NCBI GenBank assembly: GCA_031459875.1
Contig: JAVKHQ010000032.1
Coordinates: 1-29,960, forward strand
Reading direction: 5' to 3'
Origin: Candidatus Fervidifonticultor sextus
GTDB lineage: Bacteria > Sysuimicrobiota > Sysuimicrobiia > Sysuimicrobiales > Humicultoraceae
Length of the DNA: 29,960 bases
The translations under genes and the position numbers were made by a program. The first letter of the stretch is position 1. The number at the start of each line of letters is the position of its first letter. The notes beneath the pieces are model-generated. The model was given only the letters and a program-made list of their open reading frames with translations. It made no database searches and was not told the origin of the DNA. Below are positions 3,039 through 21,581 of this stretch, piece after piece.

Positions 3039-4123
3039 GAGTCGTCCTCCCTCTCCTCTCTGCCTGCGTGGTCGTACAGCACGTGCATGCGGTCTGGCGT
3101 CAACACTAGGTAGACCTCGCCCCAAAACGCCGTCTCCCCCGGGGCGGCCTGGTCCACCACCCACTCCATCCCCATGGCCTCCACCCAGTACCGGGCGAGG
3201 CCGCCGAGGAACGCGCTGCCCCGGACGGTGCCTCGGAGGTAGGGCCGTCCCCCCTCGGCCGGCGGTGCGGCCGCCAGGGTCACGGTCTCCGGTCGGACGA
3301 CCAGGGTGGCGGGACCGGGTTTCGTCGCGGCGGCGACGGGCAGGGTGAGGTCGCCCAGGCGCACGCGGCCCGGTGTCTCCACGGCCGTCCGGACGAAGTT
3401 GGCCAGCCCGACGAAATCGGCCACGAACCGGTCCGCCGGCCGGTAGTAGATCTCGCGGGGCGCGCCCACCTGCACGATCCGGCCGTGGTTCATCACCGCG
3501 ATGCGGTCGGAGATCGACAGCGCCTCCTCCTGGTCGTGGGTGACGTAGATCGTCGTCTTGCCCAGGCGCTGCTGCAGCGCGCGGATCTCCGTCCGCACGC
3601 GCACCCGCAATTTGGCGTCCAGGTTGGACAGCGGCTCGTCCAACAGGAGGACCTCGGGCTCGACCACCAGAGCGCGCGCCAGCGCCACCCGTTGCTGCTG
3701 GCCGCCCGAGAGCTGGCCGGGGAACTTGCCCTCCTGCCCGGCCAGACCCACCAGCTCCATCACCGCGGCGATCCGCCGCCGGGCCTCGGCCCGGGGAATC
3801 CCGCGCATGCGCAGCCCGTAGCCGATGTTCTCTTCCACGGTCATGTGGGGGAACAGCGCGTACTCCTGGAAGACCATGGCCATGTTGCGGCGGTGGGCCG
3901 GGATGTCGGTGACCCGGACGTCGCGGACGAAAATGTCCCCGGCATCCGGCGCGTAGAAGCCGGCGATCAGGCGCAGGGTGGTGGTCTTGCCGCAGCCCGA
4001 CGGCCCCAGCAGCGTCGTGAACTGGCCTTCGGGCACATCCAGGGAGACGTGGTCCACGGCCAGCGTCGCACCCAGACGCTTGGTCACCTCCGCCAGGCGG
4101 ACGTGCGCGACCGCCGAACTCAT
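3035..4123 (-). CDS. ABC transporter ATP-binding protein (FbpC/PotA class)
   Basis: GPSGCGKTT, LSGGQQQRVALARA, LLLDEPLSNLD, C-terminal TOBE-like region. Start ATG 4123 overlaps the permease stop. Confidence 0.93.
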   Translation of the reverse strand: MSSAVAHVRLAEVTKRLGATLAVDHVSLDVPEGQFTTLLGPSGCGKTTTLRLIAGFYAPDAGDIFVRDVRVTDIPAHRRNMAMVFQEYALFPHMTVEENIGYGLRMRGIPRAEARRRIAAVMELVGLAGQEGKFPGQLSGGQQQRVALARALVVEPEVLLLDEPLSNLDAKLRVRVRTEIRALQQRLGKTTIYVTHDQEEALSISDRIAVMNHGRIVQVGAPREIYYRPADRFVADFVGLANFVRTAVETPGRVRLGDLTLPVAAATKPGPATLVVRPETVTLAAAPPAEGGRPYLRGTVRGSAFLGGLARYWVEAMGMEWVVDQAAPGETAFWGEVYLVLTPDRMHVLYDHAGREEREDDS

Positions 4124-13954: not shown

Positions 13955-15022
13955 TCAGGATACGGGATGGCGCCGTCTTCCTGCACCTGCCGCGACCCTG
14001 CCGACGGATGCGCGCCCCCTTGATGCCCCGCAGGAGTCGCGGACGATCAACCGGGGCTCCAGGACCAGGCGGCGTGGCGTGTGGTCTCCGCCGCCGAGCA
14101 GTTCCAGCATGCGTTCCATGGCCAGATGACCCATGCGGTACTTGGGCTGGGCGACCGTGGTGAGCGGTGGGTCGACCAGTGACGCGAAGGTGATATCGTC
14201 GAAGCCCACCACCGCCACATCGTCGGGCAGCCGACGCCCCCACCGGCGCAGTTCCCGCATGGCGCCGATGGCCATGAGGTCGTTGGCGGCCACGACCGCC
14301 GTGAAGGCCGCCCCGCGGCGGAGCAGCGCGCCCACCACGGCCGCCCCGCCGTCGGCGTGGAAGTCCCCGTCGCCGATCCGCGCCGGATCCACCGGGATGC
14401 CGGCGGCCTGCAGCGCATCACGGTAGCCGGCCAGCCGCTCCCGGGCCACCGGCAGCGTCCCGGGACCCCCGATGAACGCGATCCGCCGGTGCCCCAGGCG
14501 CAGCAGGTGCTCGGTCGCCTCGCGCGCGCCCCGGCGGTTGTCCACCAGGACCGCGTCCATCTCGACCCCATCGGGCGCCCGCGCTACCAGGACCACGGGC
14601 ACGCCCTGGCGGCGCAGCATTCGCAGATGCCCCGTGTTGGCACCCACGGTGGCGAAGATCAGGCCGTCCACCATCCGCTTGCGCAGCACGCTCAGGTAGG
14701 TGCGCTCCTTGGCGAGATCCTCGTAGGTGTTGCACAGCAGCACCGCCAGCCCTGCCCGGCTGGCCACGTCCTCGATGCCGCGGGCGATCGCCGGGAAGAA
14801 CGGGTTGCTGATGTCCGGGACGATCAGGCCGATGGTTCCGGTGACGCGCTTCTTCAGGCCCCGCGCCACCAGATTCGGGTGGTAGCCCAGGCGCGCCACC
14901 GCGGCCAGGACCCGGTGGCGGGTGGGATCGCTGACCCGGTGGGCGCTCCCGCTGACGACGCGCGACACCGTCGCGACAGAGACGCCTGCCGCCCTGGCCA
15001 CTTCACGGATCGTCGCGGTCAC
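13955..15022 (-). CDS. LacI-family transcriptional regulator
   Basis: TIREVARAAGVSVATVSRV HTH; NPFF, ANDLMAIG, VVGFDD, PPLTTV. Confidence 0.96.
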   Translation of the reverse strand: MTATIREVARAAGVSVATVSRVVSGSAHRVSDPTRHRVLAAVARLGYHPNLVARGLKKRVTGTIGLIVPDISNPFFPAIARGIEDVASRAGLAVLLCNTYEDLAKERTYLSVLRKRMVDGLIFATVGANTGHLRMLRRQGVPVVLVARAPDGVEMDAVLVDNRRGAREATEHLLRLGHRRIAFIGGPGTLPVARERLAGYRDALQAAGIPVDPARIGDGDFHADGGAAVVGALLRRGAAFTAVVAANDLMAIGAMRELRRWGRRLPDDVAVVGFDDITFASLVDPPLTTVAQPKYRMGHLAMERMLELLGGGDHTPRRLVLEPRLIVRDSCGASRGRASVGRVAAGAGRRRHPVS

Positions 15023-15072
15023 GCTTGTCCTCCCCGCACCGACACGAGCGGGAGACCGGCACAGGTAGAAGG

Positions 15073-15088
15073 TGGAAAACGTTTACCA
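15073..15088. promoter_or_regulatory. LacI-type operator TGGAAAACGTTTACCA
   Basis: Near-perfect 16-bp palindrome with central CG and AAAC/GTTT arms, 50 nt upstream of the LacI gene. Confidence 0.75.
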
Positions 15089-15132
15089 TCTCGGAGGTTC
15101 GTCGCGTCCGATGGCTCCTCCTGCCTGAACCC

Positions 15133-15162
15133 TTCCACGGGGCCCCGGCCGTCCCATACAAT
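15133..15162 (+). promoter_or_regulatory. Putative sigma70 promoter of the acyl-CoA dehydrogenase gene
   Basis: TTCCAC-N18-TACAAT. Confidence 0.45.
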
Positions 15163-15194
15163 CAGGGAGACGACAGCGCCGCGGAGGCGTTTTG

Positions 15195-16373
15195 GTGAGG
15201 GAACTGACGGTCCGCCCGTCCGACTACTTCCATCTCGAGGACGTGTTGACGGAAGACGAGCGGCTCGTGCGCGACACCGTGCGCCGGTTCGTGGACCGCG
15301 AGGTCCTCCCCCACATCGGCGGGTGGTGGCTGCGCGGCGAGTTCCCGCGCCATCTGGTGCCCCGGCTCGGCGATCTGGGTGTGCTGGGGCCCACCCTCCC
15401 GACCGACTATGGTGCCGCCGGGGTCAACAACATCACCTACGGCCTCATCATGCAGGAACTGGAGCGCGGCGACTCCGGCCTGCGGTCCTTCGCCTCGGTG
15501 CAGGGCGCGCTGGTCATGTACCCCATCTACACGTTCGGCAGCGAAGAGCAGCGCCGCCGCTGGCTGCCCCGGCTCGCCCGCGGCGAGGCGGTGGGCTGCT
15601 TCGGCCTCACCGAGCACGGCGCCGGGTCGGACCCGGCGGCGATGCAGACGCGGGCCCACCGCCGCCCCGACGGCTGGGAACTATCGGGCAGCAAGATGTG
15701 GATCACCAACGGCTCGCTGGCGGACGTCGCCGTCGTCTGGGCCAAGGACGACGAGGGGGAGATCCGCGGCTTCCTGGTCGAGCGCGGGACACCGGGGTAT
15801 ACCGCCCACGAAGTGAAGACCAAGGCCAGCATGCGCGCCTCGGATACCTCGGAACTCGTCTTCGACAGCGTCCGCGTCGGGGAGGACGCCGTGCTGCCCG
15901 ACGCGAAGGGGCTGCGGGCGCCGCTGGCCTGCCTGACCCAGGCGCGCTACGGGATCGCGTGGGGCGCCGTCGGGGCGGCGATGGCATGCTTCGAGGAAGC
16001 GCTGGCCTACGCCAAGGCGCGCGTTGCCTTCGGCAAGCCCATCGCCGCCACACAGATCATCCAGGAACGATTGGTCGACATGCTCACCGAGATCACCAAG
16101 GCGCAACTGCTGGCCTACCGGCTGGGGCAACTCAAGGACCAGGGGCGGATGCGCTACACCCAGGTGTCCCTGGCCAAGCGCAACAATGTGCGGACGGCTC
16201 TCGAGATCGCCCGCGCCGCGCGCAGCATCCTGGGCGCGTCGGGGATCACCCTGGAGTACCACTCGATGCGCCACGCGGCGAACCTCGAATCGGTGGACAC
16301 CTACGAGGGGACCTACGACATCCACACGCTGATCCTGGGCCGGGATCTCACGGGCCTGGATGCGTTCGGCTAG
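15195..16373 (+). CDS. Acyl-CoA dehydrogenase, glutaryl-CoA dehydrogenase-like
   Basis: ELERGDSGLRSFASVQ, CFGLTE..AGSDP, KMWITNG, TYEGTYDIHTLILG. GGAGG lies 7 nt before GTG 15195. Confidence 0.9.
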   Translation: MRELTVRPSDYFHLEDVLTEDERLVRDTVRRFVDREVLPHIGGWWLRGEFPRHLVPRLGDLGVLGPTLPTDYGAAGVNNITYGLIMQELERGDSGLRSFASVQGALVMYPIYTFGSEEQRRRWLPRLARGEAVGCFGLTEHGAGSDPAAMQTRAHRRPDGWELSGSKMWITNGSLADVAVVWAKDDEGEIRGFLVERGTPGYTAHEVKTKASMRASDTSELVFDSVRVGEDAVLPDAKGLRAPLACLTQARYGIAWGAVGAAMACFEEALAYAKARVAFGKPIAATQIIQERLVDMLTEITKAQLLAYRLGQLKDQGRMRYTQVSLAKRNNVRTALEIARAARSILGASGITLEYHSMRHAANLESVDTYEGTYDIHTLILGRDLTGLDAFG

Positions 16374-16398
16374 AGGGCGCGGCGGGGCCCCCGGAACG

Positions 16399-16432
16399 CG
16401 ACGAGACGGCGGGGATCCCCGCCGTCTCGTCG
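16399..16432. terminator. 34-bp perfect palindrome, probable bidirectional terminator between convergent genes
   Basis: CGACGAGACGGCGGGGA/TCCCCGCCGTCTCGTCG; no U-tract. Confidence 0.65.
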
Positions 16433-16449
16433 GGGCAAGCGCAGGGCGG

Positions 16450-16494
16450 CTACTTGCCCTTCTTCTTCGCGGCCTTCTTTGCCTTCTTCGCCAC
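16450..16494 (-). CDS. 14-aa Lys/Ala-rich microprotein MAKKAKKAAKKKGK
   Basis: AAGGAGG (16503-16509) lies 8 nt before GTG; TAG stop; downstream hairpin; candidate promoter TTGACG-N16-CATCTT (16517-16544). Confidence 0.6.
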   Translation of the reverse strand: MAKKAKKAAKKKGK

Positions 16495-16596
16495 CGTCCT
16501 CGCCTCCTTCTCCTGGAAGATGGACGGCAGAAGCGTGCCGTCAAATACCCGTTCGCTACTACATGTGGACATTCCTTCTTGCCCGGGCACAAATTC

Positions 16597-18498
16597 TTGA
16601 TTGGGTGGCTGACCGTCTCGGTCGTCCTCGGGGCTTCCGGGATCGCGACGGTCGCCCGGGAGCGTCCGGCCGACGTGCGCGGCCATTGGGGCGAAGGGCG
16701 CATCGTGGAATTGATCGGGCGCGGGATCATCGCGGTGGAGGCCGACGGCCTCTTCCGACCCGACGAGGCCGTCTCGCGCGGACAGTTCGTCCAGTGGCTG
16801 GTCGCCGCCCGCGGGCTCCCCCAGGTTCGCCAGGCGCTCCCGCCCTTCGCCGATCTCCCTGCGGGCTCCGAGCACGCGCCCGCGGTGGAGACGGCCGTCG
16901 CATTCGGCATCGTGCCGCCCGGCGGGGTGTTCCGGCCCGGGGCACCGCTCCTGCGCGGGGAAGCGTTCGGGTGGCTCGTCCGCGCCATGGGACACACCTT
17001 CGAGGCCGCCTACATGACCAACGCGGCCCTGCCCTTCCAGGATGTGGACGGCCTGCCTCCGTCGGTGCGCGGGTCGATTGCGGTGGTGGCGCTCGCGAGA
17101 CCGCCGATCCTCCGCGAACCGCCGTCTGAGCGCGTGCGGCCGTTTGCACCCATGACCCGCGCCGAAGCGGCCAGTCTCCTCTGGGGATACCTCCAGACCG
17201 TCGAGCGGGGCACCTCGCTGACTTTCACGGTCTCGGTGGGCCCGGGGGTCACGCTCATCCTCGAGAAGCGCGGCGTGCTGCGGGTCCTGCCGGTCTGGCG
17301 GGTGCAGGTCGGGGCCTTCGCGGACGAGGATCGAGCGCGACGGCTGGTCGACAGCCTGCGGGCGCGGGGCCTGCCGGTGACCATAGAGCAGGTAGACGAC
17401 CTGTTCAAAGTGCGCGTGGGGGACTTCACGACCCGCGATGAGGCGGCGGCCTTCGAGCGGCGGATGGTCGACGAAGGCCTGTCCACCTGGGTCATCCTGA
17501 CGGTGCGCGACTATGAAGCGCTGGGCGGACCGTTCTGGACCGGGATTTTGGTGGTCGAACCGGCCAGCGGCGTGCGCCTGCGCCCCGCGCTGGCCCGCGA
17601 GACCACCATCGGGCGGGGGCGCACCAGTGAGGCCGCGCGCCGGGCCGGCGCCCAGGCTGCGGTCAACGGCGGGTTCTTCTCGGGCGCGGGCGATCCCCTG
17701 GGCTGTCTGGTCATCGACGGCGACGTGCTCAGCGAACCGGTCGCCGGACGGACGTGCGCCGGCCTGACCGACGACGGCCAGGTGCTCTTCGATGTGCTCA
17801 GGTTCGATGCCCGGGCCGCCGGCGAGGCGGGGACGGTGGCCATCGACGGCGTCAACCGCGAGCGCGGGCCCAACGAGATCATCCTCTACCGCCCTGCCCA
17901 CGGCCCGACCACGCGCACCAACGCCTTTGGGGCCGAGGTGATCGTCTCGGGCAGTGCGGTCGAGCAGATCGTCGACGGCCGCGGCAACAGCCCGATCCCA
18001 CCCGGTGGGTACGTGCTGTCCGGACACGGCCGCGGCCGGGGAGCCCTGCTGACCGCCTTCAAACCGGGCGACCGCGTGGCCCTGCGGATGCGCCTGCTCC
18101 CGTCGTCCGGCGACCCCCGATGGGCGCATGTCCGGCACATCTTCGGCGGCGGCCCGCGCCTGCTGGCCGACGGACAGTTCGTCGGCGGCGAGGGCTTCCG
18201 GCCGTGGTTGGTCGAGCGACGCCACCCGCGCACCGCCATCGGCCGCCTGGGCGACGGCCGGATCATCCTGGTCGTCGTCGGCGGCCGGCAGCCCTACCAC
18301 AGCCTGGGCATGACGCTGCTCGAACTGGCGGTGCTGATGCGCCAGTTGGGGGCCACCGACGCCCTGAACCTGGACGGCGGCGGCTCGTCCACCTTGGTCG
18401 TGCGGGGCGTCGTGGTGAACCTGCCGTCGGACGAGACAGGTGAACGGCCGGTCAGCGACGTGCTGCTGGTGATGCCCCCGGGGACCGGCCACCGCTAG
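16597..18498 (+). CDS. Surface protein with SLH repeats, SPOR domain and phosphodiester glycosidase (NAGPA-like) domain
   Basis: DVRGHW...FRPDEAVSRGQF (SLH); WRVQVGAF...FKVRVGDF (SPOR); AAVNGGFF, RHPRTAIG, NLDGGGSS. Start uncertain; TTG 16597 precedes a hydrophobic segment. Confidence 0.85.
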   Translation: MIGWLTVSVVLGASGIATVARERPADVRGHWGEGRIVELIGRGIIAVEADGLFRPDEAVSRGQFVQWLVAARGLPQVRQALPPFADLPAGSEHAPAVETAVAFGIVPPGGVFRPGAPLLRGEAFGWLVRAMGHTFEAAYMTNAALPFQDVDGLPPSVRGSIAVVALARPPILREPPSERVRPFAPMTRAEAASLLWGYLQTVERGTSLTFTVSVGPGVTLILEKRGVLRVLPVWRVQVGAFADEDRARRLVDSLRARGLPVTIEQVDDLFKVRVGDFTTRDEAAAFERRMVDEGLSTWVILTVRDYEALGGPFWTGILVVEPASGVRLRPALARETTIGRGRTSEAARRAGAQAAVNGGFFSGAGDPLGCLVIDGDVLSEPVAGRTCAGLTDDGQVLFDVLRFDARAAGEAGTVAIDGVNRERGPNEIILYRPAHGPTTRTNAFGAEVIVSGSAVEQIVDGRGNSPIPPGGYVLSGHGRGRGALLTAFKPGDRVALRMRLLPSSGDPRWAHVRHIFGGGPRLLADGQFVGGEGFRPWLVERRHPRTAIGRLGDGRIILVVVGGRQPYHSLGMTLLELAVLMRQLGATDALNLDGGGSSTLVVRGVVVNLPSDETGERPVSDVLLVMPPGTGHR

Positions 18499-18609
18499 TC
18501 GGGAGTGGTGTTTGTCCGACATGCCAGACGAGGGGAGAGGTCCTCTCAGACCGGGGGGGCGCGGCTGTTCGGGGCGTCGTGGGAGGGGTGGAGCCTGAAG
18601 GACGACTGA

Positions 18610-20381: not shown

Positions 20382-21581
20382 CTACCTCCGCGCCAGATAG
20401 CGCTCCAGCTGCCGCAGGCTCTCCAGGTTGTGGGCGGGGGCGAAGATGTCCACAAAGGGGAGCGCCACCCGCATGCCCTGGCAGATCGGCTCGTAGCCCG
20501 GGCTGGCCAGCAGCGGGTTCAACCAGATCACCCGTGCGGCCCGCCGCCGCACCTCGGCCATGGCGGCCTCCAGCAGGTCGATCTCGCCGGTGTCCCAGCC
20601 GTCGCTGATGATGATCACCACGGTGCGCCCGTCGAGGACCTTCCCTCCGTACTCGTCCAGGAATCGTCGCAGGCTCCGCCCGATCTTGGTCCCACCCGAC
20701 CAGTCCGGGACGCGACGCGCGACGTCGTCGAGCGCCGCATGGATGTCGTCGCGGGCCAGCGACCCGGTGATGCGGCTCAGGCCGGTACTGAAGACAAACG
20801 TCTCGACCCGGCCGATGGCGTGCTGGAGCGCGTAGATGAACTGGATCAGGAAGCGGCTGTAGAGGTCCATCGAGCCGCTCACGTCGCAGAGCAGGACGAC
20901 GCGCGTCTTGGTCAGTTTGCGCTCACGGCGCAAAATCTCCATGACCTCACCGCCGCGGCGCAGGCTCGCCCGCATGGTACGGCGGAGGTCGACCAGGTGG
21001 CCGCGCCGGGCGGTGCGGGTGCGGCGCGACAGGCGGGTCGCCACCCGGCGCGCGATGGCACACACCACCGCCGTGATCTCCTCCAGTTCGTCGGCCGAAA
21101 ACATGCTGAAATCCTTGCGCGTCACCACCTCGACGGGGCTGTAGGCCGGCACCTCCTCCCCGCCTTCGGCATCGGCGTCCTCCTGCTGCCACTCGAGCAA
21201 CACGCGCTCCAGGGCGTGCTGGCCATCAAGTGAGAGGTCGGCGGCGTCCGGCCCGCCGGACGGCCGGCGCTGCTCGTCCGCCGCGCCCCAGAACTCCCAG
21301 AAGACCGCATCGAAAATGCGCTGGGCCTCGGGGCCGCTGGCCAGCACCGCGCGCAGGGCCAGGTAGGCCTCGCGGCGATCTGAGAGATCGACGACCCGCA
21401 GCGCCCGCAGCGCGTCGGCCGCCTCCTGGGCGCCCACCTGCAGGCCGCGCCGGCGCAACAGCCGGCAGAACCCCACCACGTTGGCGACCAGGTCGCCGTG
21501 GCGCGGCCGGCCGAGCCCCCGGCCCTCTACCGCCGCGCCTGCAGGCGCTCCGCGATCTGTGCGACGAGCTGCTGGCTCCAT
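20382..21581 (-). CDS. coxE: VWA-domain CoxE-like protein
   Basis: MIDAS DVSGSM, WSGGT.IG, ISDGWDTG, WLNPL. Start uncertain; ATG 21581 overlaps the coxD 3' end. Confidence 0.88.
   Translation of the reverse strand: MEPAARRTDRGAPAGAAVEGRGLGRPRHGDLVANVVGFCRLLRRRGLQVGAQEAADALRALRVVDLSDRREAYLALRAVLASGPEAQRIFDAVFWEFWGAADEQRRPSGGPDAADLSLDGQHALERVLLEWQQEDADAEGGEEVPAYSPVEVVTRKDFSMFSADELEEITAVVCAIARRVATRLSRRTRTARRGHLVDLRRTMRASLRRGGEVMEILRRERKLTKTRVVLLCDVSGSMDLYSRFLIQFIYALQHAIGRVETFVFSTGLSRITGSLARDDIHAALDDVARRVPDWSGGTKIGRSLRRFLDEYGGKVLDGRTVVIIISDGWDTGEIDLLEAAMAEVRRRAARVIWLNPLLASPGYEPICQGMRVALPFVDIFAPAHNLESLRQLERYLARR

Follow-up and report, generated by a model that had tools for sequence, protein, structure and literature searches.

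A 14-codon, lysine-rich reading frame on the minus strand of a 29,960-nt stretch of DNA (the whole of which is referred to below as the window) is very probably a real protein-coding gene, kept across the phylum CSP1-3/Sysuimicrobiota. It is missing from every annotation because gene finders discard ORFs this short. The frame encodes the peptide MAKKAKKAAKKKGK, and the proposal of the first-pass annotation that it is a hidden gene with its own Shine-Dalgarno (SD) sequence and terminator is borne out by conservation, by changes that are exclusively synonymous, by length differences that stay in frame, by a paralog and by gene order. As to function, we favor with modest confidence a reading of the sequence in which an independently transcribed micro-gene would make a polycationic peptide that binds nucleic acid, either at the ribosome or another RNA or in the nucleoid. 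Here and below, we infer that the peptide is translated, how abundant it is and what it binds.

The micro-gene and its place in the window

The window has a G+C content of ∼70%, and the micro-gene lies in the spacer between two plus-strand genes (16374-16578). Read directly on the minus strand, its coding sequence occupies 16450..16494, from a GTG start (16494-16492) to a TAG stop (16452-16450), and 8 of its 14 codons specify Lys, with AAG used for all 8. The SD, AAGGAGG (16503..16509, minus strand), is separated from the GTG by an 8-nt spacer and does not vary among the 23 sequences of the alignment. SD, spacing, start and Lys codons are all found where the first-pass annotation had placed them on the minus strand. 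It had also described a 7-bp inverted repeat at 16523-16542, which is present and consists of the DNA arms GACGGCA (16542-16536) and TGCCGTC (16529-16523). In the transcript, these arms (GACGGCA and UGCCGUC) would close a 5'-UTR hairpin with a 6-nt loop (16523..16542, minus strand), whose core is conserved and which is recovered in prefix folds.

Two further hairpins are predicted at the 3' end. The first, at the stop codon (16433..16459, minus strand), pairs GGGCAAG (16459-16453) with CUUGCCC (16439-16433) in both consensus and single-sequence folds. By eye, the two most distant aligned copies show a different helix at this place. The second is the terminator hairpin of the micro-gene, a 34-nt palindrome of 15 pairs and a 4-nt loop (16399..16432, minus strand) that shows compensatory changes. 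It begins 17 nt past the TAG, and thus the palindrome reported earlier at this distance from the stop does exist, at 16432-16399.

The convergent neighbor is an acyl-CoA dehydrogenase gene (15192..16373, plus strand; Pfam Acyl-CoA_dh_N/M/1), and the divergent neighbor (16579..18498, plus strand) encodes a cell-envelope protein with Pfam SLH, SPOR and NAGPA domains. The latter gene would start at a TTG at 16579 or 16597, the first in-frame starts past the dehydrogenase stop in the ORF frame 16360..18498. On the plus strand, positions 16441-16470 combine the complement of the stop-codon hairpin with the pyrimidine-rich antisense of the coding sequence, and they score as a terminator-like site. 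This site might help to end the acyl-CoA dehydrogenase transcript or might be a mere by-product.

A minus-strand ORF of 690 aa (16450..18522) shares its TAG with the micro-gene, which had for that reason been described as the tail of a spurious frame. That description is correct, since the 690-aa ORF had no match in a Pfam search and runs antisense to the SLH-SPOR-NAGPA gene. A 747-aa ORF on the plus strand (14357-16600) also had no Pfam match, and like the 690-aa frame it overlaps genuine genes, which are read from the opposite strand or in a different frame. Both are typical spurious ORFs for a genome of 70% G+C.

Conservation and coding signature across the phylum

The 227-nt spacer had a match in 19 of the 24 other genomes of the same family, and alignment with relatives was lost beyond ∼105 nt upstream of the micro-gene start. 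With a covariance model of the ∼170-nt unit, built from 21 sequences that were all copies from family f1 and used with E values up to 0.01, we found matches in 71 of the 94 genomes of the window's phylum. These comprised 32/33 genomes in family f1, 22/22 in f2, 9/23 in f4, 4/12 in f5 and 1/1 in each of f3, f6 and f7. A model made from f1 copies may be less sensitive outside f1, which could account for the smaller numbers in f4 and f5. Many genomes contained two copies of the unit. The counts take in two unpublished genomes (G013 and G022), and no claim made here hangs on either of them alone. The named public records that carry the element are labeled as Candidatus Fervidifonticultor species, Armatimonadetes bacterium CSP1-3 and Armatimonadota metagenome-assembled genomes (MAGs). 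The main text of PMC11604079, in which CSP1-3 is the phylum Sysuimicrobiota and Fervidifonticultor is among its genera, does not contain the terms "small protein" and "histone", and we found no paper in the literature that describes the micro-gene.

We inspected 50 hits of the model, namely, the best 30 and 20 weaker ones picked by hand. An SD followed by a Lys/Ala-rich ORF of 10 to 30 residues was kept in 49 of them; 48 had an ATG or GTG start, an SD and at least 35% Lys, and 1 further copy started with TTG. Only these three start codons occurred. The sole broken copy (L113, at G026:C2 ∼21163-21323) has a one-base frameshift in a recognizable AKK-repeat ORF of ∼33 residues, possibly an artifact of assembly or the mark of a pseudogene. 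Distant copies have an SD of the GGAGG or GGGAGGG type. The inspected peptides begin with MA(K/A/T) and are composed nearly entirely of Lys, Ala, Gly, Thr, Ser and Arg, with a Lys share of 50 to 70% in relatives. They are 10, 11, 12, 13, 14, 17, 27, 29 or 30 residues long, and every change in length is in frame. Relatives preserve the MAKK start, a positive net charge and a mixture of Lys and Ala rather than the exact sequence.

The 14-codon form shows how the frame is constrained at closer range. Among its 19 distinct DNA copies, only 6 of 45 columns vary, each at a synonymous third position (AAG/AAA, GCN and TAG/TAA), and the 14-mer is strictly invariant across at least 10 genera. Furthermore, all 12 metagenome contigs that we retrieved by the 5'-UTR motif alone carry the ORF, one variant of which has 11 residues. 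The ORF is also retained at loci with differing UTRs, in f2, f4, f5, f7 and the paralog.

Gene order is conserved at two loci. At loci of the window type, the micro-gene is divergent from an SLH-SPOR(-NAGPA) gene in 20 of 20 f1 loci, in 3 of 3 f2 loci and in genome G006; the two start codons are usually 113 to 190 nt apart in relatives versus 85 to 103 nt in the window. The acyl-CoA dehydrogenase gene was found on the other side in 18 of the 20 f1 loci examined and in none of the other families examined. The second locus is that of the paralog, a 12-residue peptide, MAKKKAAKKKGK, encoded on the minus strand of contig G000:C21 from a start at 3212 (L017 ∼1518-1557). The paralog has its own purine-rich SD, a 5'-UTR hairpin (GGACGG...CCGUCC) and a terminator made of a hairpin and a T-run. 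In f1, f5 and f7, a beta-eliminating lyase gene precedes the micro-gene at 4 of 5 loci of this type and a convergent gene for an MlaD-domain protein is found at 4 of 5. The peptide varies here from 12 to 30 residues, with AKKA-repeat versions of 27 to 30 residues in other families. That two gene orders are conserved across families fits vertical inheritance. The neighbors at the micro-gene loci share no functional theme.

A pattern scan returned 52 loci, which comprised 23 stand-alone micro-ORFs in records of the CSP1-3 type, 24 C-terminal tails of ribosomal protein uL29, 3 out-of-frame matches and 2 tails of longer ORFs. At the 24 uL29 loci, which are from Bryobacterales/Terriglobia, the pattern is the end of the protein (...VAKKKKKGK-stop), directly upstream of S17; the assignment was made with Pfam Ribosomal_L29 and Ribosomal_S17 for one locus (L018, 188-430) and by shared upstream sequence, as judged by eye, for the others. 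A similar oligolysine tail thus sits on a ribosomal protein in another phylum. On an uncultured-bacterium contig (L048, 401-530), we observed two tandem Lys-rich micro-ORFs, each after a GGAAGGAGGTGA site, the first of 13 residues and the second probably of ∼10, as judged from an antisense ORF listing; both are convergent with a gene that Pfam identifies as that of ribosomal protein L28. Two viral contigs from IMG/VR (L136 and L137) contain SD-preceded ORFs of 12 residues, MAKKRKGKKKGK and MAKKCKPKKKGK, with a clear terminator in one of them. We do not count these two as independent evidence, given that the search pattern imposed their MAKK...KKKGK ends.

Transcript elements and alternative readings of the locus

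The promoter proposed in the first-pass annotation, TTGACG-N16-CATCTT, fared only in part: its letters are present on the minus strand (TTGACG at 16544-16539, then 16 nt, then CATCTT at 16522-16517), but TTGACG is not conserved, relatives having GCGACG or ACGACG at this place, and the site overlaps the 5' hairpin. A sigma-70 scan of 16300-16700 on both strands found no promoter-like site. To judge from its conservation, a better candidate for the promoter and the transcript 5' end is an upstream block at 16551..16600 (minus strand), which is conserved in f1, f2 and partly f4, with unalignable sequence beyond it. This block contains a -35-like TTGTGC (16592-16587), an A/T-rich box CACATGT (16567-16561) and GTAGCGAAC (16559-16551), all on the minus strand, and it gave no match in a scan with the sigma-70 consensus. 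A search for a regulon with motifs from the block was negative: GT[AG][GT]CGAAC occurs 102 times in the genome, mostly within genes, and longer motifs occur only 1 or 2 times elsewhere. Four loci of one f1 genus (L093-L096, genus g3) have a direct repeat in this upstream region, with TCTGGTGGCGAAC and TCTGGTAGCGAAC ∼31 nt apart, and a weaker version of it is present in the window. By its sequence, this repeat may be a putative regulator binding site.

The core of the 5' hairpin, GACGGC/GCCGUC, was invariant in 21 of 23 aligned sequences, and GACGG/CCGUC was invariant in all 23. The loop varied in sequence and length. In prefix folds, this hairpin is the first to form. Minimum-energy and consensus folds instead pair GCCGUCC with GGACGGU and CUUCC with GGAGG, which hides the SD and the start codon, and this form is predicted to be ∼5 kcal/mol better than the 5'-hairpin form. 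We considered a switch based on SD hiding and rejected it: the outer helix is broken in L014 with no compensating change, and at 23 loci taken from five families, pairing of the SD did not exceed that in controls with shuffled flanks (depending on the locus, between 0.02 and 0.95 of the shuffles were at or below the native value).

At the 3' end, 7 pairs of the terminator stem show compensatory double changes among the 23 sequences. Relatives have a T-run after the stem, and only on the minus strand, which assigns the terminator to the micro-gene. A simple terminator scan missed the copy in the window because there is no clear T-run there.

The signs of expression are weak and consist of contigs from relatives that cover the unit. 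These are assembled contigs, without strand, ends or level, from two RNA runs and two further runs guessed to be RNA, and the shares of sampled words in the RNA runs were small (0.10 to 0.15). In a hot-spring RNA run, a 780-nt contig covers the equivalent of 16418-16542 and continues into the neighboring gene; contigs of 109 and 151 nt from two other runs span ∼16432-16534. Many other contigs from RNA runs were discarded, as they covered only the AAG-rich coding sequence and came from unrelated lysine-rich genes.

The alternative that survives best is a regulatory short ORF, in which translation of the Lys codons would sense lysyl-tRNA or translation capacity and the peptide would be a by-product. 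We regard it as improbable. Two traits of leader peptides are present, namely, a run of Lys codons (8 of 14 here, 50 to 70% in relatives) and a strong hairpin that always lies close after the ORF, in the window the terminator hairpin. The third, a downstream gene on the same strand, is absent at both main loci and was found in f4 only, where the micro-ORF precedes a same-strand Peptidase_M29 aminopeptidase gene at 3 of 3 loci and the hairpin is poor in T-run, an attenuator-like layout. A precedent for a functional leader peptide of 14 residues is peTrpL of the Sinorhizobium trp attenuator, described as a functional peptide whose transcript doubles as a small RNA (sRNA) (bioRxiv 10.1101/606483, PMC7968998). 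The micro-gene resembles peTrpL in its 14 residues and its short terminated transcript. However, the peTrpL frame precedes genes of trp biosynthesis and contains Trp codons for attenuation, whereas at the two widely conserved loci studied here the gene past the terminator is convergent, so there is nothing downstream to control. In addition, no antiterminator pairing was seen by eye or in consensus, single-sequence or prefix folds, relatives keep both the Lys/Ala pattern and the MAKK at the N terminus, and the 27- to 30-residue forms resemble repeat proteins rather than leaders. The neighbors are also unconnected to lysine synthesis. The acyl-CoA dehydrogenase, which from its C-terminal motif we first took to be a glutaryl-CoA dehydrogenase, could have provided a link to lysine catabolism; we rejected this link, as the protein passes no NCBIfam equivalog cut-off and its position next to the micro-gene is confined to f1.

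Less likely again is a role mainly for the RNA, either as an sRNA or as a cis element shared with the divergent SLH-SPOR-NAGPA gene, with the ORF secondary or at most part of a dual-function transcript. In its favor, the UTR conservation exceeds the needs of a plain mRNA. Both UTRs hardly vary within f1, including the 17-nt 3' UTR in the 23-sequence alignment, and the micro-gene block, with a coding part of just 45 nt, is 70 to 91% identical between genera, which is similar to the acyl-CoA dehydrogenase gene (75 to 83%) and higher than the SLH gene (66 to 73%). The whole transcript also folds better than shuffled sequences (z of -3.5, with 0 of 200 shuffles as stable), and the order with the SLH-SPOR gene, kept in all f1 and f2 loci counted above, would suit a shared element. 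On the other hand, it is the ORF and not the UTR sequence that persists in f2, f4, f5, f7 and the paralog, and variation in the coding sequence has a three-base period. Covariation was detected in the terminator only, the predicted occlusion of the SD did not exceed that in shuffled controls, and the Rfam 15 covariance models gave only chance miRNA matches on the palindrome (E of 0.33 to 0.69). Moreover, the conserved block stops ∼105 nt before the micro-gene start, and in most relatives unconserved sequence separates it from the SLH start.

A functionless chance ORF inside a conserved intergenic spacer or terminator region might be suspected, given that spurious ORFs abound in high-GC genomes and that gene callers do not report the micro-gene, but it is already contradicted by the 49 of 50 phylum-wide hits that retain frame, start, stop and SD, by the synonymous changes and in-frame lengths and by the rarity of Lys-rich ORFs, and we consider it next to impossible. 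This rarity is pronounced at 70% G+C: among the 44,124 ORFs of 8 to 31 codons on both strands of the whole 3.05-Mb genome, only 2 contain at least 40% Lys, and these are the micro-gene and its 12-residue paralog. Three genomes simulated with a first-order Markov model had no such ORF among ∼63,000 each. A chance origin of the Lys-rich frame is excluded.

Candidate targets of the peptide and comparison with known systems

For the favored reading, a gene for a nucleic-acid-binding polycationic peptide, we propose the following model. The micro-gene would be transcribed into an mRNA of ∼150 to 170 nt that carries the upstream block, the 5' stem-loop, the SD, the 14-codon ORF, the stop-codon hairpin and the intrinsic terminator. 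The peptide would probably lose its initiator Met, given that methionine aminopeptidase prefers small residues such as Ala at the second position. The conserved effector would be the peptide and not the RNA alone, and it would act by its charge on an intracellular polyanion, a mode of action for which we see a slight preponderance of support. Composition, charge and the MAKK start are kept while the length ranges from 12 to 30 residues at one syntenic locus, which fits charge-based binding. RNA or the ribosome would be the likeliest polyanion, as for the polybasic ribosomal microproteins, which act by filling rRNA pockets; we put this target forward tentatively. Chromosomal DNA or the nucleoid, as for the Lys/Ala-repeat H1-like proteins, would come second and seems unlikely, and another polyanion, such as polyphosphate, seems very unlikely. 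The first-pass annotation had offered a histone-H1/protamine-like binder or a tiny ribosome-associated peptide, and this pair is still the most plausible functional reading. The spread in length counts against a ribosomal site, as a protein that docks specifically on the ribosome would not usually range from 10 to 30 residues. We also considered that the peptide might fill a gap in the genome's repertoire and dropped the idea, as HU (2 matches) and bS21 (1 match) are already encoded.

Searches of Pfam, Rfam, NCBIfam and PDB gave no family match for the micro-gene or its peptide. As the 14-mer is below the length limits of the tools, the family and PDB tests used natural homologs of 27 to 30 residues. 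A 29-residue homolog had no match among PDB sequences at E values up to 10. In NCBIfam, the 27- to 30-residue homologs did not match bS22, bL37 or bTHX, and the best scores fell far short of the cut-offs (13.8 bits for Rv3852_fam, with an E value of 0.061 and a cut-off of 100; 11.3 bits for NF038053, with an E value of 0.3 and a cut-off of 80). In a protein atlas, the related clusters, of 29 to 38 residues, are otherwise unnamed, and the nearest one with any Pfam assignment has HC2 in 17% of its members (score of 0.89), a connection that is only a lead.

If the peptide is a component of the ribosome or the nucleoid, it would push down the size limit of conserved bacterial proteins, and a phylum that is widespread in hot springs and deep soil but uncultivated would gain a further part of its basic machinery. 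A broader and rather speculative extension is that the oligolysine peptides of 10 to 14 residues in CSP1-3/Sysuimicrobiota are abundant and essential, as an unrecognized ribosomal protein or a nucleoid counter-ion, and belong to a much wider class of ribosomally made polylysine peptides that annotation systematically misses in many uncultivated bacterial and archaeal phyla. If so, few conserved protein-coding genes known would be as short as theirs.

Among known systems, the ribosomal proteins bS22, bL37 and bTHX and the eukaryotic/archaeal eL41 are like the micro-gene in being very short, very basic and often unannotated and in having small stand-alone genes. The strict invariance of the 14-mer and the strong constraint on its UTRs are, by this analogy, more like those of a ribosomal-protein gene. 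Proteins of the bS22/bL37/bTHX type mix Arg with Lys and have a fixed length of ∼24 to 35 residues. In contrast, the peptides described here are mostly of 10 to 14 residues and at most of 30, are nearly pure Lys/Ala and have no detectable similarity to these proteins. The reports on bS22 and bL37 themselves concern mycobacterial, Cutibacterium, Borrelia and Bacteroidota ribosomes.

The second group consists of chlamydial Hc2/HctB, Pseudomonas AlgP and the Burkholderia-type H1-like protein, which share with the micro-gene product a low-complexity Lys/Ala sequence of the AKKA type. Tandem AKKA-type repeats are clear in the 27- to 30-residue orthologs of f5 and f7, whereas the 14-mer contains one or two units at most and the H1-like proteins have 100 to 240 residues. 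AlgP is described as binding DNA or polyphosphate granules through its charge (PMC9239181), and Hc2 is described as varying in length by gain and loss of lysine-rich units (PMC2848022). As far as the analogy goes, the change in length by repeat units at a single syntenic locus of the micro-gene resembles that of Hc2.
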